This document shows positions 1-5,260 of a DNA stretch of 5,260 nucleotides, in pieces. Position 1 is the stretch's first letter. Every line of letters starts with the position of its first letter. The notes under the pieces are model-generated. The model was not told the DNA's origin. It saw only the letters and a program-made list of their open reading frames with translations, and made no database searches. The translations under genes were made by a program, and so were the position numbers. The stretch comes from a virus (Duplodnaviria; Heunggongvirae; Uroviricota; Caudoviricetes): the IMG/VR virus record IMGVR_UViG_2778261360_000016, positions 1 through 5,260 of that record, one strand, 5' to 3'.

Positions 1-420
1 ATGGATGAATGCCGCCGCGAACCATTCAAAACCAGCGAAGGCAGAGAAATTACGGGGCCGTGGCAGTCGCATCCCAAACGGATGTTACGGCATAAAGCCA
101 TGATTCAGTGTGCCCGGCTGGCCTTCGGATTTGCGGGTATCTATGACAAGGATGAAGCCGAGCGCATTGTCGAAAATACCGCATACACTGCAGAACGTCA
201 GCCGGAACGCGACATCACTCCGGTTAACGATGAAACCATGCAGGAGATTAACACTCTGCTGATTGCCCTGGACAAAACATGGGATGACGACTTATTGCCG
301 CTCTGTTCCCAGATATTTCGCCGCGACATTCGCGCATCGTCGGAACTGACACAGGCCGAAGCAGTGAAAGCTCTTGGATTCCTGAAACAGAAAGCCTCTG
401 AACAGAAGGTGGCTGCATGA
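1..420 (+). CDS. bet: Bet (Red-beta) single-strand annealing recombinase, 3' portion only; the gene starts upstream of the window
   Basis: The frame is open from base 1 and the translation [11 protein letters not shown]...[22 protein letters not shown] matches the C-terminal part of phage lambda Bet as I recall it, so the ATG at 1 is an internal Met. The TGA at 418-420 overlaps the exo ATG at 417-419 (ATGA). Confidence 0.93.
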
Positions 421-1097
421 CACCGGACATTATCCTGCAGCGTACCGGGATCGACGTGAGAGCTGTCGAACAGGGGGATCATGCGTGGCACAAATTACGG
501 CTCGGCGTCATCACCGCTTCAGAAGTTCACAATGTGATAGCAAAACCCCGCTCCGGAAAGAAATGGCCTGACATGAAAATGTCCTACTTCCACACCCTGC
601 TTGCCGAGGTTTGCACCGGTGTGGCTCCGGAAGTTAACGCTAAGGCGCTGGCCTGGGGAAAACAGTACGAGAACGACGCCAGAGCCCTCTTTGAGTTCAC
701 TTCCGGCGTGAATGTTACTGAATCCCCGATCATCTATCGCGACGAAAGTATGCGCACCGCCTGCTCTCCCGATGGTTTATGCAGTGACGGCAATGGCCTT
801 GAGCTGAAATGCCCGTTTACCTCCCGGGATTTCATGAAGTTCCGGCTCGGTGGTTTCGAGGCCATAAAGTCGGCTTACATGGCCCAGGTGCAGTACAGCA
901 TGTGGGTGACGCGAAAAGATGCCTGGTACTTTTCCAACTATGACCCGCGTATGAAGCGTGAAGGCCTGCATTATGTCGTGGTTGAGCGGGATGAAAAGTA
1001 CATGGCGAGTTTTGACGAGATGGTGCCGGAGTTCATCGAAAAAATGGACGAGGCACTGGCTGAAATTGGTTTTGTATTTGGGGAGCAATGGCGATGA
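417..1097 (+). CDS. exo: Lambda-type 5'-3' exonuclease (Red-alpha, Exo), 226 aa
   Basis: The 226-aa translation [21 protein letters not shown]...[15 protein letters not shown] is near-identical to lambda exonuclease as I recall it. An AAGGTGG Shine-Dalgarno-like motif sits at 406-412, and the start overlaps the bet stop. Confidence 0.96.
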
Positions 1098-1276
1098 AGC
1101 ATCCTCACGATAATATCCGCGTAGGCACGATCACTTTCGTCTACTCCGTTACAAAGCGAGGCTGGGTATTTCCCGGCCTTTCTGTTATCCGAAATCCCCT
1201 GAATGCACAGCGGCTGGCTGAGGAGATAAATAATAAACGGGGGGCTGTATGCACAAAGCATCTCCCGTTGAGTTAA
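1094..1276 (+). CDS. Lambda orf60a-like small protein of the exo-xis region, 60 aa
   Basis: ATG at 1094 overlaps the exo stop (ATGA) and is preceded by GGGGAG at 1080-1085 with 8-nt spacing. From this start the product is exactly 60 aa ([11 protein letters not shown]...CTKHLPLS), matching the name and position of lambda orf60a. The upstream in-frame ATG at 1088 used by the ORF track lies only 2 nt from that motif. Confidence 0.75.
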
Positions 1277-1440
1277 GAACGAGTATCGAGATGGCACATA
1301 GCCTCGCTCAAATTGGAGTCAGGTTTGTGCCAATACCAGTAGAAACAGACGAAGAATTTCATACGTTAGCCGCATCCCTTTCACAAAAGCTGGAAATGAT
1401 GGTGGCGAAAGCAGAAGCAGATGAGAGAGACCCGGTATGA
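1249..1440 (+). CDS. Lambda orf63-like small protein of the exo-xis region, 63 aa
   Basis: The 63-aa ORF overlaps the orf60a 3' end by 28 nt and sits in the position of lambda orf63. A G-run at 1239-1244 precedes the ATG. An internal ATG at 1291 (MAHSLAQIGV...) is an alternative start. Confidence 0.72.
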   Translation: MHKASPVELRTSIEMAHSLAQIGVRFVPIPVETDEEFHTLAASLSQKLEMMVAKAEADERDPV

Positions 1441-1732
1441 CAACCACGGAATGCATTTTTCTGGCTGCGGGCTTCATATTCTGTGTGCTTATGCTTGCCG
1501 ACATGGGACTTGTTCAATGACACCTCAGCAAGAAAACGCCCTTCGCAGCATTGCCCGTCAGGCTAATTCTGAAATCAAAAAAGCCAGACAGCAGTTTCCG
1601 GATAAAAACGTCAATGACATTTGTCGTAGCGTACTGAAGAAGCACCGCGAAACGGTAACGCTGATGGGATTCACACCGACTCACTTAAGTCTGGCAATCG
1701 GCATGTTAAACGGCGTCTTTAAGGAACGGTGA
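1421..1732 (+). CDS. Lambda orf61-like protein, extended form (103 aa from ATG 1421; alternative start ATG 1517 gives 71 aa)
   Basis: The ORF starts 20 nt inside the orf63 3' end, as lambda orf61 does relative to orf63, and codon 62 is AAA rather than a stop. The C-terminal 71 aa (MTPQQENALRSIARQANSEIKK...) look like a genuine small basic protein. The N-terminal 32 aa are Cys/His-rich and no clear Shine-Dalgarno precedes 1421, so the true start is uncertain. Confidence 0.6.
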   Translation: MRETRYDNHGMHFSGCGLHILCAYACRHGTCSMTPQQENALRSIARQANSEIKKARQQFPDKNVNDICRSVLKKHRETVTLMGFTPTHLSLAIGMLNGVFKER

Positions 1733-1752
1733 ACATGAAAAGCAAAATCATC

Positions 1753-1775
1753 AGGGAGCTACAGGCTCCTTTTTT
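1753..1775 (+). terminator. Candidate rho-independent terminator or attenuator in the orf61-orf73 intergenic region
   Basis: A 5-bp stem GGAGC (1755-1759) / GCTCC (1765-1769) with a 5-nt loop, extendable by A-U and G-U pairs, is followed by T6 at 1770-1775. The stem is short, so this is probably only a partial terminator. Confidence 0.35.
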
Positions 1776-1830
1776 ATTATTCGCATTCACCCTCAAGCGT
1801 ATTAACCAACCATTCAGGGATTAATGGAAG

Positions 1831-2052
1831 ATGGCAGACATCATTGATTCAGCATCAGAAATTGAAGAATTACAGCGCAACACAGCAATAAAAATGCGCC
1901 GCCTGAACCACCAGGCTATATCTGCCACTCATTGTTGTGAGTGTGGCGATCCCATAGATGAGCGAAGACGCCTGGCCGTTCAGGGTTGTCGGACTTGTGC
2001 AAGTTGCCAGGAAGTTCTGGAGCTTATCAGTAAACAGAGAGGTTCGAAGTGA
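1831..2052 (+). CDS. DksA/TraR-family C4 zinc-finger protein (lambda orf73-like), 73 aa
   Basis: The 73-aa product carries the CxxC-(17)-CxxC motif CCECGDPIDERRRLAVQGCRTCASC typical of TraR/DksA C4 zinc fingers. Its length and position match lambda orf73. The stop overlaps the GTG start of the next gene (GTGA). Confidence 0.85.
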   Translation: MADIIDSASEIEELQRNTAIKMRRLNHQAISATHCCECGDPIDERRRLAVQGCRTCASCQEVLELISKQRGSK

Positions 2053-2420
2053 GCGAAATTAACTCTCAGGCACTGCGTGAAGCGGCAGAGCAGGCAATGC
2101 ATGACAACTGGGGATTTGACGCGGACCTTTTCCATGAGCTGGTAACACCATCGATTGTGCTGGCACTGCTGGATGAACGGGAAAGAAACCAGCAATACGT
2201 CAAACGCCGCGACAAGGAGAACGAGGATATTGCACTAACGGTAGGGAGGCTGCGCGTTGAGCTGGAAGGCAAACACAGGCGCATTACTGAGCTGACAATG
2301 TGGATTAAGCGACTGAGTTCCTCTCTCAAAAACGCAAAACCAGACAGCAAGTTGCCGGATGACGCAATGATCTGGCTAAATAATGAAGGGCTTACCAGTA
2401 TAGAGGATATTTTACGATGA
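2049..2420 (+). CDS. Ea22-like (ead/Ea22 family) N-terminal-domain protein, 123 aa, GTG start
   Basis: GTG at 2049 is preceded by GAGG at 2039-2042 with 6-nt spacing. The N-terminus MSEINSQALREAAEQAMHDNWGFDADLFHELVTPSIVLALLDERERNQQY resembles the conserved N-terminal region of lambda Ea22-family proteins as I recall it. The central region is charged and looks coiled-coil-like. Confidence 0.7.
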   Translation: MSEINSQALREAAEQAMHDNWGFDADLFHELVTPSIVLALLDERERNQQYVKRRDKENEDIALTVGRLRVELEGKHRRITELTMWIKRLSSSLKNAKPDSKLPDDAMIWLNNEGLTSIEDILR

Positions 2421-3064
2421 GCACTTTTACCATGGAATGGCTACAAAATACGATTACCAGTATTGAGTCAGCACGAGATGAAATGCCATTCGGACTCGAT
2501 AACGATCAAGCACACATGCTTACAGCATTTAAAATCGCTCTCGCCTCACTGGAACGCGAGCGGGTTCGCCACGAGCATGCCAAATGGTCTGACTCCACAT
2601 TTGGCTGCGTTGGCCCCATTGGTCCACTGAAACACCTCTCAAAAGAGGCTCTGGAAGCCGCAGCCGAACCTGACGATCTCAGCGAGTGGGCTGATATGCA
2701 GTTCCTGTTGTGGGATGCACAGCGCCGTGCCGGTATCAGTGATGCTGAAATTACCGCTGCTATGGAAAATAAATTGAAGATCAACATGGAGCGTCAGTGG
2801 CCTGAACCAAAAGATGGTGAGCCTCGTTTGCACATTAAAGAACCCGGCAACTCTCCGGTAACTCCGGATGGTTGGATAAGCTGTAGTGAGCTAATGCCAG
2901 ATGATGGTCAGCACGTAATTATTTTATGTGATGGCGCATTCGTTCTTTATGCGCAATATCGAGACGGAGAGTTTTTCGATATTGTCCGCAATGGTGATGA
3001 ATTTTTCGAAACACAGAGTCGCAATGTAACCGACTGGATGCAACTACCAGAACCTCCTCTTTGA
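2417..3064 (+). CDS. Two-domain prophage protein: MazG-like nucleotide pyrophosphohydrolase-type N-terminal domain (DUF550-like) plus C-terminal DUF551-like domain, 215 aa
   Basis: ATG at 2417 overlaps the upstream stop (ATGA). The N-terminal half has a MazG-like acidic helix pattern (EALEAAAEPDDLSEWADMQFLLWDAQRRAGISDAEI). The C-terminal WISCSELMPDDGQHVIILCDG...YAQYRDGEFF...WMQLPEPP matches the DUF551 signature common in enterobacterial prophage proteins. Domain names are from memory, not a search. Confidence 0.78.
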   Translation: MSTFTMEWLQNTITSIESARDEMPFGLDNDQAHMLTAFKIALASLERERVRHEHAKWSDSTFGCVGPIGPLKHLSKEALEAAAEPDDLSEWADMQFLLWDAQRRAGISDAEITAAMENKLKINMERQWPEPKDGEPRLHIKEPGNSPVTPDGWISCSELMPDDGQHVIILCDGAFVLYAQYRDGEFFDIVRNGDEFFETQSRNVTDWMQLPEPPL

Positions 3065-3160
3065 TAGCTAAGCTTATACATATCTTTTACATCAGCAATC
3101 TATTGTTAATCTCCAATCAATGTTACGTTGTCATCTCTCTCATGCTTTGGAGGTAGTGAT

Positions 3161-3340
3161 ATGTCTTGTCCAAAATGCGGTTCTGGAAATATTGCAAAAG
3201 AAAAAACAATGCGTGGATGGTCTGATGATTATGTGTGCTGCGATTGCGGATACAACGACTCTAAAGACGTATTTGGAGAGCGTGGTAAAAACGATTTTGT
3301 CAAAATTAATAAAGAACGCGAAGGCAACGAAAAAAGCTAA
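3161..3340 (+). CDS. Small zinc-ribbon protein, 59 aa (CPKCG...CCDCG), in an AT-rich island
   Basis: ATG at 3161 is preceded by GGAGG at 3149-3153 with 7-nt spacing. Two Cys pairs (CPKC and CCDC) are spaced like a zinc ribbon, and the C-terminus is Lys/Glu-rich. The ORF-track start at 3128 is a TTG with no ribosome-binding site, so the ATG is preferred. Confidence 0.55.
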   Translation: MSCPKCGSGNIAKEKTMRGWSDDYVCCDCGYNDSKDVFGERGKNDFVKINKEREGNEKS

Positions 3341-3405
3341 TTTATTTATTCATATATGAAAACAATGTAACCAATATTCGAATTGAAGAACTGAAAGAAC
3401 ACCAA

Positions 3406-3427
3406 GCCGCCTGATGGCGGTTTTTTT
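3406..3427 (+). terminator. Rho-independent terminator candidate downstream of the zinc-ribbon gene
   Basis: A GC-rich stem CCGCC (3407-3411) / GGCGG (3416-3420) with loop TGAT is followed by T7 at 3421-3427. The T-run is on the + strand, so it is oriented for + strand transcription. Confidence 0.6.
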
Positions 3428-3441
3428 ATTGGAGACAAGAA

Positions 3442-3786
3442 ATGTCAGATTTGGCTATGAAGGTTTTGAAATGGCAATCGACTGGCGATGTTGGCATCAG
3501 TAGCGCAACTCTTGCCTCAATCGCATGTGGACTGAAAAAGAATATCTATGGTCATCACTTCGGCGCTCCCCATGACGCAGCCGATTTCAGACGATGCGTT
3601 GCACTTGTTGAGCAGATTCCAGAAATCAGAGATTCATTCAACAAGGTTGCAAAGCGCGTTCCGGCATTCAAAGGAATCCTCAACGAATGGGATTCTCTCG
3701 TTGCTCTGTTGAAGTCTGAAATGAAGATACACGGAAACAAAGCACCAGAGACTTACAGAAGAATTAGCGAGTTACGCAAGGACTAA
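3442..3786 (+). CDS. Hypothetical protein, 114 aa, function unknown, in the lower-GC accessory region between the ea genes and xis
   Basis: The ATG at 3442 is preceded by GGAGA at 3431-3435 with 6-nt spacing and follows the terminator T-run within 15 nt. The ORF is clean, with a soluble, helical-looking composition. I do not recognise the sequence. Confidence 0.65.
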   Translation: MSDLAMKVLKWQSTGDVGISSATLASIACGLKKNIYGHHFGAPHDAADFRRCVALVEQIPEIRDSFNKVAKRVPAFKGILNEWDSLVALLKSEMKIHGNKAPETYRRISELRKD

Positions 3787-3875
3787 CCACAGCCTCACAC
3801 TCAATGAGGCCTGCCAGCTTCTCAAGATATCCAGACCTACAGCAATCATGTCAATCCAATAAATGGAGACTCCAA

Positions 3876-4223
3876 GTGGAAGAAGAAATCTTCACTCGTG
3901 AAGAGGCAGCATCGTATCTGAAGGTAGACAAAGGCACTATCACGCAGTGGATACGAAGTGGACGACTTCAGGCCGCAAAGATAAATCCAGATAAACCTAA
4001 AAGCCCATATCGCATTTGCAAGTCAGACTGCATTGCGGCGCTTAAGTCTGTGAGACACAATAGCGCGGTGAATGCGGTTGATGTGCAGGAGGTTAAAGCA
4101 TGTCAATCAAACTGCGCGGTGGCACATGGCACTGCGATTTCGTCGCGCCAGATGGATCAAGAGTTAGACGCTCTCTTGAAACATCGGACAAAAGGCAAGC
4201 GCAAGAACTTCACGATCGTCTGA
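3876..4223 (+). CDS. xis: Excisionase (Xis), HTH excisionase-family DNA-binding protein, probably P22-type, about 115 aa from GTG 3876
   Basis: The motif EEEIFTREEAASYLKVDKGTITQWIRSGRLQAAKI is typical of excisionase/MerR-like helix-turn-helix domains, and the gene lies immediately upstream of int. GTG at 3876 has GGAG at 3865-3868 with 7-nt spacing, whereas the in-frame ATG at 3804 (139 aa) has no ribosome-binding site. The 3' end overlaps int by 124 nt. Confidence 0.7.
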   Translation: MEEEIFTREEAASYLKVDKGTITQWIRSGRLQAAKINPDKPKSPYRICKSDCIAALKSVRHNSAVNAVDVQEVKACQSNCAVAHGTAISSRQMDQELDALLKHRTKGKRKNFTIV

Positions 4224-5260
4224 AAGCAGAGGCGTGGAGAGTAAAAAATCTCGGGGAATCGCCGAAAAAGCTATTCAAGGAAGCCTGCATACGGTGGCTG
4301 CGTGAGAAATCGGATAAGAAGTCCATTGATGATGACAAGAGCATTATATCGTTCTGGATGTTGCACTTCAGAGAAACCATTCTCTCTGACATAACAACAG
4401 AAAAAATAATGGAGGCGGTAGACGGGATGGAAAACCGCCGCCATCGCCTGAACTGGGAGATGAGCCGGGACAGGTGTTTGCGGCTTGGCAAGCCAGTGCC
4501 GGAGTATAAACCAAAGCTGGCAAGCAAAGGAACGAAGACGCGGCATCTGGCAATACTTCGCGCTATTCTCAATATGGCTGTTGAATGGGGATGGCTTGAC
4601 AGGGCGCCCAAAATATCAACACCACGCGTTAAGAATGGACGCATTAGATGGCTTACAGAAGAGGAATCGAAGCGCCTGTTTGCAGAAATAGCTCCTCATT
4701 TCTTCCCTGTTGTCATGTTTGCAATCACGACAGGCCTTCGCCGTTCCAACGTTACAGACCTTGAGTGGTCACAGGTCGATCTGGATAAGAAAATGGCATG
4801 GATGCCCCCTGATGAAACAAAAGCTGGCAATGCGATCGGAGTTCCTCTTAACGAAACCGCATGCCAGATATTAAGAAAACAGCAGGGACTCCATAAGAGA
4901 TGGGTATTTGTCCACACCAAACCTGCCTACCGAAGCGACGGAACAAAAACAGCAGCGGTAAGGAAGATGAGAACCGACAGCAACAAGGCATGGAAGGGAG
5001 CGTTAAAGCGGGCAGGCATTAGCAACTTCCGCTTCCATGACCTGAGGCATACCTGGGCAAGCTGGCTGGTTCAGTCCGGTGTCTCTCTTCTTGCACTTAA
5101 AGAGATGGGAGGATGGGAAACTCTCGAAATGGTTCAAAGATACGCCCACCTTTCAGCCGGGCATCTCACTGAGCACGCGAGCAAAATCGATGCGATTATA
5201 AATCGCAATGGCACAAATACGGCACAAGAGGAAAACGTGGTTTACTTAAATGTGAGATAA
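4100..5260 (+). CDS. int: Tyrosine-recombinase phage integrase (P22/Sf6-type Int), 386 aa
   Basis: AGGAGG at 4087-4092 lies 7 nt before the ATG at 4100. Catalytic signatures are present: TGLRRSN (Arg box), HDLRHTWASWLVQSG (H-x-x-R), GGWETLEMVQRYAHL (Tyr nucleophile). The N-terminus MSIKLRGGTWHCDFVAPDG...KRQAQELHDRLKAEAWRV resembles P22 Int as I recall it. The TAA at 5258-5260 is the last codon of the window. Confidence 0.95.
   Translation: MSIKLRGGTWHCDFVAPDGSRVRRSLETSDKRQAQELHDRLKAEAWRVKNLGESPKKLFKEACIRWLREKSDKKSIDDDKSIISFWMLHFRETILSDITTEKIMEAVDGMENRRHRLNWEMSRDRCLRLGKPVPEYKPKLASKGTKTRHLAILRAILNMAVEWGWLDRAPKISTPRVKNGRIRWLTEEESKRLFAEIAPHFFPVVMFAITTGLRRSNVTDLEWSQVDLDKKMAWMPPDETKAGNAIGVPLNETACQILRKQQGLHKRWVFVHTKPAYRSDGTKTAAVRKMRTDSNKAWKGALKRAGISNFRFHDLRHTWASWLVQSGVSLLALKEMGGWETLEMVQRYAHLSAGHLTEHASKIDAIINRNGTNTAQEENVVYLNVR

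Follow-up and report, generated by a model that had tools for sequence, protein, structure and literature searches.

A TraR-family gene and a DUF550-DUF551 gene as neighbours in the early-left operon of a lambda-type Escherichia coli prophage

The 5,260-nucleotide stretch of DNA analysed here, hereafter the window (IMG/VR record IMGVR_UViG_2778261360_000016, positions 1 to 5,260), covers the distal portion of the early-left (pL) operon in a lambda-type Escherichia coli prophage, with all of its genes on the + strand. Its subject of interest is a block of three consecutive genes: orf73 (1831-2052), which encodes a 73-residue C4 zinc-finger protein of the TraR family; an Ea22-like gene with a GTG start (2049-2420; 123 residues); and an EaA-type gene (2417-3064) whose 215-residue product joins a DUF550 domain to a DUF551 domain. 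An initial annotation had proposed that the TraR-like regulator and the DUF550 protein, which it took to be MazG-like, form a coordinated unit acting on host transcription and nucleotide pools. Surveys of related loci speak otherwise: orf73 and the DUF550 gene are accessory modules that assort independently and happen to occupy one address, brought together by phage gene shuffling, and not a dedicated two-part system. Taken whole, the account that best fits the evidence is of a functional Orf73 allele, a block recombined within ea22, a MazZ-like enzyme and an incidental adjacency, and this account is considered probable.

The stretch is an ordinary one and is already annotated. Each of its three genes matches, exactly or almost exactly, a protein named in RefSeq, where the best-matching genome (L001) lists them as "TraR/DksA family transcriptional regulator", "ead/Ea22-like family protein" and "dATP/dGTP pyrophosphohydrolase domain-containing protein", with starts that agree with the list of open reading frames (ORFs). 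In that genome the block lies beside ybhC, adjoining the lambda attachment site. Little of this is new, the mechanism of Orf73 and the modular nature of Ea22 both having been published. The question of interest is what job a strictly conserved MazZ-like active site performs in temperate phages with ordinary DNA.

Assortment and origin of the three-gene block

Co-occurrence was assessed in both directions, using 80 listed viral loci with DUF550, 72 Orf73 contigs with enough downstream DNA, and 41 assessable DUF550 loci at one genome per species; the locus sets are redundant and biased toward close relatives. A TraR-like gene, sought with an iterated hidden Markov model (HMM), is found in 24 of the 80 listed DUF550 loci (30%), usually together with the lambda-type exo block. 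Conversely, DUF550 lies downstream of Orf73 in 12 of the 72 Orf73 loci (17%), and the species-dereplicated set places a TraR-like gene in 8 of 41 (19%). Of 5,426 complete E. coli genomes, 3,316 have orf73-type DNA (4,715 copies), 514 have this DUF550 allele and 44 have the block of three genes. Each gene is also found in phages without the other. Lambda and phage 434 carry orf73 and lack DUF550, and the P22-like Salmonella phage Phi75 has a DUF550 gene (eaA) followed by eaG, while the annotated stretch nearby lists no gene named TraR or DksA. With co-occurrence of only 17-30%, depending on direction and data set, the coordinated unit of the initial annotation is not upheld.

For the 56 of 80 DUF550 loci without TraR, the iterated HMM added nothing. 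A hidden, divergent TraR/DksA protein was also looked for among 27 small ORFs with a C4 motif and rejected: the six scanned against Pfam proved to be Lar, EaG-type, YbcO-like or unassigned, none of them matching PF01258, and the remaining 21 were judged by sequence only.

The block itself is arranged as the initial annotation described, as three chained ORFs on the + strand with stop/start overlaps, read directly as GTGA at 2049-2052 (orf73 to the Ea22-like gene) and ATGA at 2417-2420 (the Ea22-like gene to the 215-residue gene). Shine-Dalgarno-like sequences precede both downstream starts, AGAGAGG (2036-2042) by 6 bases and AGAGGA by 9 bases. Upstream, between the orf61-like gene and orf73, a terminator-like hairpin with a T-run (1753-1782, +) has an 8-pair stem followed by TTTTTATTATT and is identical to the predicted terminator t2 of lambda and phi24B (Table 4, PMC4195576). 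A second hairpin with a T-run (3404-3430, +) is the predicted t5 of lambda (Table 4, PMC4195576). Because 1831-3064 is free of terminator-like sites on the + strand and is flanked by these published predicted terminators, orf73 and the DUF550 gene are certainly co-expressed, and the same-operon expression suggested earlier can be narrowed to co-transcription in a sub-unit bounded by t2 and t5. The region belongs to the exo-xis segment of the pL operon, which is accessory and non-essential, and its genes are co-transcribed after N antitermination and translationally chained.

The identification of the first gene as TraR/Orf73 stands on several lines of evidence. In the Pfam scan its product scores 35 bits against PF01258 (zf-dskA_traR; cut-off 24.9), it falls in phrog_54 ("DksA-like zinc-finger protein", 2e-25), and it matches TraR in the PDB (5W1S) with an E-value of 5.5e-5. 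TraR of the F plasmid (PDB 5W1S/6N57) is of one family with lambda Orf73, its closest known counterpart. The NCBIfam model of the TraR subfamily, TIGR02419, is missed marginally (56.8 bits against a cut-off of 59.7), a miss that 97% identity to lambda Orf73 would outweigh. The two proteins are of the same length, share 71 of 73 residues and occupy the same place after the orf61-t2 terminator. Both keep D3 and D6 along with a six-cysteine pattern, composed here of a CxxC-x17-CxxC zinc finger (C35/C38 and C56/C59 about a 17-residue spacer) and the additional cysteines C36 and C53 that characterise lambda Orf73; the window allele differs from lambda by the substitutions V49A and D62V. The roles of D3, D6 and the zinc finger in TraR-type proteins have been described, and lambda Orf73 binds E. 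coli RNA polymerase and, both in vitro and in vivo, inhibits rrnB P1 and rpsT P2 with no need of guanosine tetraphosphate (ppGpp); it also makes the host grow more slowly and increases phage yield three- to four-fold (PMC9239242). As those experiments concern the lambda protein, it is by its near identity that the window protein is predicted to be a functional allele, which would enter the RNA polymerase secondary channel, shut rRNA and ribosomal-protein promoters without ppGpp, and increase the yield of phage.

The second gene records how the block may have been assembled. Ea22 proteins are described as sharing an N-terminal segment and a coiled coil while exchanging their C-terminal domains, and one Shiga toxin (Stx) phage variant ends in DUF551 (PMC10834534). 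The window product scores 75.4 bits against PF13935 (Ead_Ea22; cut-off 27) over residues 2-79 in the Pfam scan. It shares with lambda Ea22 and the Stx-phage variants V1-V3 a GTG start overlapping the orf73 stop and about 72 nearly identical N-terminal residues bearing the Ead_Ea22 signature. The match to lambda Ea22 extends only to about residue 72. Thereafter the start of the coiled coil gives way to a different short tail, common to other ea-region PHROG families, and the protein ends at residue 123 instead of 182, lacking the dimeric C-terminal domain of the lambda type; against solved structures it returned a chance coiled-coil match only. The initial annotation was right about the length of lambda Ea22 (182 residues; also PMC10834534) and about the N-terminal character of the window gene. 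The 215-residue ORF, for its part, is not a detached C-terminal part of lambda Ea22 and belongs to an unrelated EaA-type module.

At the DNA level the breakpoint falls at 2267-2268, inside ea22. By blastn against the lambda DE3 locus (L002), window positions 1-2267 are 96.6% identical to lambda, similarity halts at 2267, and lambda homology returns at 3367-3426, while 3025-3448 is 96.5% identical to P22-like phage. As judged from these alignments, the block is a recombinant of lambda-type and P22 EaA/EaG-type DNA joined inside ea22. The junction links the lambda-type block to one of P22/Stx-phage type that carries the truncated Ea22, the EaA-type DUF550-DUF551 protein and EaG. The last of these is an EaG-type zinc-ribbon gene (3161-3340, +) that lies inside the t2-t5-bounded unit; its product (phrog_2945, "Eag protein" in RefSeq) is 93% identical to EaG of phage Phi75, EaG being what normally follows EaA in P22-like phages. 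The EaA/EaG arrangement of Phi75 resembles that of the window in its DUF550 core (78% identical), its C-terminal DUF551, the position of eaG next to it, and its site upstream of xis-int. Phi75 EaA differs in being 317 residues long, with a leader of another kind and additional inserts separating the domains, and has eaI directly upstream.

Enterobacterial-type orf73-ea22-DUF550 DNA (77-81% protein identity) was also seen on a 2.7-kb contig of a "Segatella copri" metagenome-assembled genome and in a "Chryseobacterium sp." assembly (L161 and L164). These occurrences probably reflect mis-binning or contamination and not transfer.

Domains and putative active site of the 215-residue protein

The 215-residue protein is identical to RefSeq WP_000103027.1, a common Escherichia protein seen on 558 contigs. 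Both of its domains score above the curated Pfam cut-offs. The first, PF04447 (formerly DUF550 and now named "dATP/dGTP pyrophosphohydrolase"), scores 142.7 bits against a cut-off of 23 and spans residues 51-145 (2567-2851, +), covering profile positions 2-96 of 97 with an all-alpha NTP pyrophosphohydrolase domain. The second, PF04448 (DUF551), scores 64.6 bits against a cut-off of 22 and spans residues 152-214 (2870-3058, +), a six-strand beta-barrel of Tudor/SH3-like fold that is probably a binding module. The AlphaFold model (mean predicted local distance difference test score 86) shows residues 6-125 as a helical bundle, then a linker without order and, last, a small beta domain, in keeping with a layout of variable helical leader (1-45), MazZ-like DUF550 domain, disordered linker and DUF551. 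In long DUF550 proteins, the N-terminal extensions carry no Pfam domain, barring an occasional Lar-like zinc ribbon.

A sequence search of solved structures with this protein returned only MazZ of cyanophage S-2L, a (d)GTP pyrophosphohydrolase (PDB 7ODY). This match was marginal (E 0.53), and a comparison of folds was therefore needed. The DUF550 domain has the four-helix MazG-type fold, and its putative metal ligands E77, E80, E90 and D93 align to MazZ E35, E38, E50 and D53 as an ExxE ... ExxD motif (E77-x2-E80, E90-x2-D93), which all 60 aligned relatives keep. The putative base and phosphate pocket comprises D100, K119, N123, R126, W128, R137 and H139. Of these, D100 aligns to MazZ D60, which reads the guanine 2-amino group, and the other six align to pocket residues given in MazZ by the partner chain (PMC8342488). 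All 15 pocket-aligned positions are invariant or nearly so among 61 relatives that are 49-99% identical overall. These proteins vary freely in length, leader and C-terminal modules, and yet the DUF550 core is still 52-95% identical; the family is a large one, with 4,292 clusters at 50% identity matching at E <= 0.001. Canonical MazG (PF03819) gave no match at E <= 0.01 in the Pfam scan, and the resemblance to MazG is one of fold and superfamily only. At that level the earlier MazG-like call, which had been staked on an HMM match and on retention of the catalytic acidic residues, survives, as the PF04447 match, the MazG-type fold and the acidic metal-binding residues are all present. The DUF550 domain is thus apparently an active, MazG/MazZ-like nucleotide pyrophosphohydrolase.

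Comparison with known systems sets this protein apart from its relatives in context. MazZ itself has no DUF551 and works in a purZ/datZ cluster that builds Z-DNA. The window has nothing of that kind; purZ and datZ neighbours are absent, and both it and the best genomic match carry only lambdoid early genes. The enzyme that gave the Pfam family its name, from Acinetobacter phage SH-Ab 15497, shares the PF04447 domain in a DUF5664-DUF550 arrangement; it is reported to turn dATP and dGTP into dAMP and dGMP plus pyrophosphate, and its gene lies between purZ and an HD hydrolase.

DUF551 is found repeatedly beside nucleotide phosphohydrolases in the early regions of prophages, fused to DUF550 in the window and as YfdS by YfdR in the CPS-53 prophage of E. 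coli K-12. The latter pair differs in consisting of separate proteins, the hydrolase YfdR being a YfbR-like HD domain nucleotidase, and over-supply of yfdQRST blocks replication initiation (PMC4776307). The hydrolase families in question, that of DUF550 and that of YfdR, are also those which Z-genome phages have recruited (MazZ/DUF550 and DatZ). Within the Orf73 loci, DUF551 occurs without DUF550 in 15 of 72.

Among 519 isolated-phage records with the DUF550 core, 365 (about 70%) are Klebsiella phages, those listed mostly having genomes of about 50 kb. One is the Webervirus vB_KpnS_Call, in which the gene is labelled "Eaa-like" and stands close to the end of the genome, in a group of small genes whose function is unknown. 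DUF550 is therefore not confined to temperate lambdoid phages.

Proposed substrate and role of the DUF550 domain

The DUF550 domain is probably a Mg/Mn-dependent, MazZ-like enzyme, and the most likely reaction of the 215-residue protein is the conversion of a purine (d)NTP to its monophosphate and pyrophosphate. Conserved D100 corresponds to the residue with which MazZ reads guanine, and a guanine-type base, in the form of dGTP, GTP or a derivative, is therefore favoured for the pocket. The protein is probably a dimer or tetramer in which residues 126-145, modelled with low confidence in the monomer, would complete the neighbouring site, as in MazZ. Candidate roles include sanitising damaged dNTPs on induction, trimming dNTP or GTP pools, and removing alarmones as phage Atd1 does. 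A stand-alone DUF550 homologue in mycobacteriophage Kostya lies between two proofreading-type exonuclease genes, a context that fits a role in DNA metabolism.

Several points weigh against this account. The only tested family member, that of SH-Ab 15497, reaches 33 bits on PF04447, where the window protein reaches 143, shows about 40% identity to the latter over 42 residues, and carries a second catalytic-type domain, the N-terminal DUF5664, which in another phage is by itself a dATP/dGTP/dUTP pyrophosphohydrolase. The dATP/dGTP label amounts to distant transfer because the sole tested member is so remote, and the widespread annotation now stands on that transfer, the biochemistry coming only from a far two-domain relative. 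An enzyme that destroys dGTP or dATP is of no obvious benefit to a phage with ordinary DNA. As to the independence of the neighbours, the proximity of TraR and DUF550 recurs in several enterobacterial genera with diverged TraR sequences, and samples that are redundant, biased toward relatives and phylogenetically uncorrected rule out obligate coupling while leaving room for a beneficial interaction in phages that have both genes.

The interaction envisaged by the initial annotation would have Orf73 impose stringent-like transcription and the enzyme shift the pools of nucleotides or alarmones, through removal of (p)ppGpp or GTP for instance, leaving the transcriptional arm of the stringent response as the only one switched on. 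Both genes do sit in one terminator-bounded, translationally chained unit, the pairing is seen again in several genera, and D100 suggests a guanine-type pocket. Phages have also been proposed to reprogram transcription through TraR homologues while avoiding the other inhibitory effects of ppGpp (Gopalkrishnan et al., PMC9239242). The closest parallel is phage Atd1, whose enzyme is described as a MazG-like (p)ppGpp pyrophosphatase that hydrolyses ppGpp (bioRxiv 10.1101/2022.06.09.495361) and with which the window DUF550 groups by fold among the all-alpha MazG-type enzymes. As far as the available description goes, however, Atd1 is called only MazG-like and is aligned with MazG-family members, and the window protein has no PF03819 match; ppGpp activity of DUF550 proteins is conjectural. 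Given in addition that the pairing is a minority arrangement in either direction, that the exact block is rare in E. coli, and that it arose through a junction inside ea22, this reading is quite improbable. A more specific form, restricted to phages in which the genes are co-resident, would have Orf73 provide a ppGpp-independent stringent-like programme, the enzyme destroy (p)ppGpp or its GTP precursor, and DUF551 direct the enzyme to a host partner. It is very improbable, though if true, such cooperation would separate the control of transcription from alarmone signalling and weaken abortive infection set off by alarmones.

Other explanations concern the enzyme or its Ea22-like neighbour. The DUF550-DUF551 protein could serve as a house-cleaning enzyme, removing damaged or non-canonical purine dNTPs (8-oxo-dGTP, 2-OH-dATP, dITP) during induction by DNA damage or oxidative stress and thereby protecting replicating phage DNA independently of Orf73. 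Links to peroxide are several. The exo-xis region is connected with H2O2-driven induction of Stx prophages (PMC4699033); orf73 and ea22 of phi24B are strongly expressed after H2O2 (PMC4195576); and E. coli becomes H2O2-sensitive on loss of the DUF551 protein YfdS (PMC4776307). The exonuclease genes flanking the Kostya domain would suit the same function. This support is circumstantial, and the sole assays in the family report canonical dATP and dGTP as substrates, leaving house-cleaning unlikely, if still a candidate. A two-chain version of Ea22 is rather improbable. Here the truncated Ea22 would act as a scaffold that recruits or organises an exchangeable effector, composed of an enzyme and a binding domain, and so influences the lysis-lysogeny decision or host replication. 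The N-terminal/coiled-coil scaffold is tetrameric in lambda Ea22, C-terminal domains are swapped among Ea22 proteins and include DUF551 in one Stx variant (PMC10834534), PHROG families mix Ea22, DUF550 and DUF551 modules, and in 56 of the 80 listed loci the gene immediately before DUF550 is of the Ea22 N-terminal type. The lambda segment orf73-ea22-ea8.5-orf55 is furthermore implicated in blocking host replication initiation, according to work cited in PMC9239242. A recombination hot spot in the ea22 coiled-coil region nonetheless explains the adjacency as well as a functional link would, and among 150 diverse DUF550 representatives not one combines that domain with an Ea22 module in a single chain. 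Only 16 of the 80 listed loci have an ATGA overlap where the DUF550 gene begins, and translational coupling at this start was rejected as a general feature. A conserved Ea22-DUF550 "Rosetta stone" fusion was likewise rejected; the sole fused protein, P0065, is the only one with all three Pfam domains, comes from one Logan contig, retains the normal start internally ("MSTITKERIELF") and resembles a read-through product.

That the DUF550 domain is a relic devoid of catalysis, in an ORF that is a functionless passenger, is hardly credible. Lambda can grow in the laboratory without this region (PMC4195576), and catalysis in the lambdoid DUF550 subgroup is putative. Against this, the putative catalytic and pocket residues are invariant while the flanking sequence is freely shuffled, and both the size of the family and the conservation of the core amid otherwise differing proteins argue for a retained function.

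Neighbouring genes and further observations

Upstream of the block, the window opens with the C-terminus of bet (1-420), followed by exo (417-1097), an orf60a-like gene (1088-1276), orf63 (1249-1440) and the orf61-like gene, which ends at 1732, all on the + strand. No structured RNA of an Rfam family reached the gathering score in the window, and a role as a defence system was rejected, the PADLOC matches (best E-values 0.007-0.009) not being meaningful.

Downstream, a gene for a 114-residue protein (3442-3786, +) lies 3' of terminator t5. Its product belongs to phrog_1229 and matched nothing in Pfam or NCBIfam. The phage 434 match ends in a 345-base gene annotated as hypothetical at the corresponding place. 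The xis and int genes (3804-5260, +) form a module that is not that of lambda and has 68-78% DNA similarity to P22-like phage. The integration module of the window may accordingly differ from that of L001, whose block sits at the lambda attachment site.

Two small features stand out between orf63 and t2. A 27-codon ORF (1437-1520, +) encodes the hydrophobic peptide MTTTECIFLAAGFIFCVLMLADMGLVQ, possibly a small peptide of the membrane. ATGA overlaps link this ORF to the orf63 stop (1437-1440) on one side and the orf61-like start (1517-1520) on the other, and it is unannotated in the RefSeq match and in phage 434. Finally, 1421-1732 (+) holds one continuous 103-residue frame where lambda (DE3 copy, L002 3921-4233) has orf61 (61 residues) and a separate 60-residue frame. 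RefSeq and the phage 434 record annotate only the 71-residue part from 1517, and lambda orf61 looks frameshifted relative to the window version.

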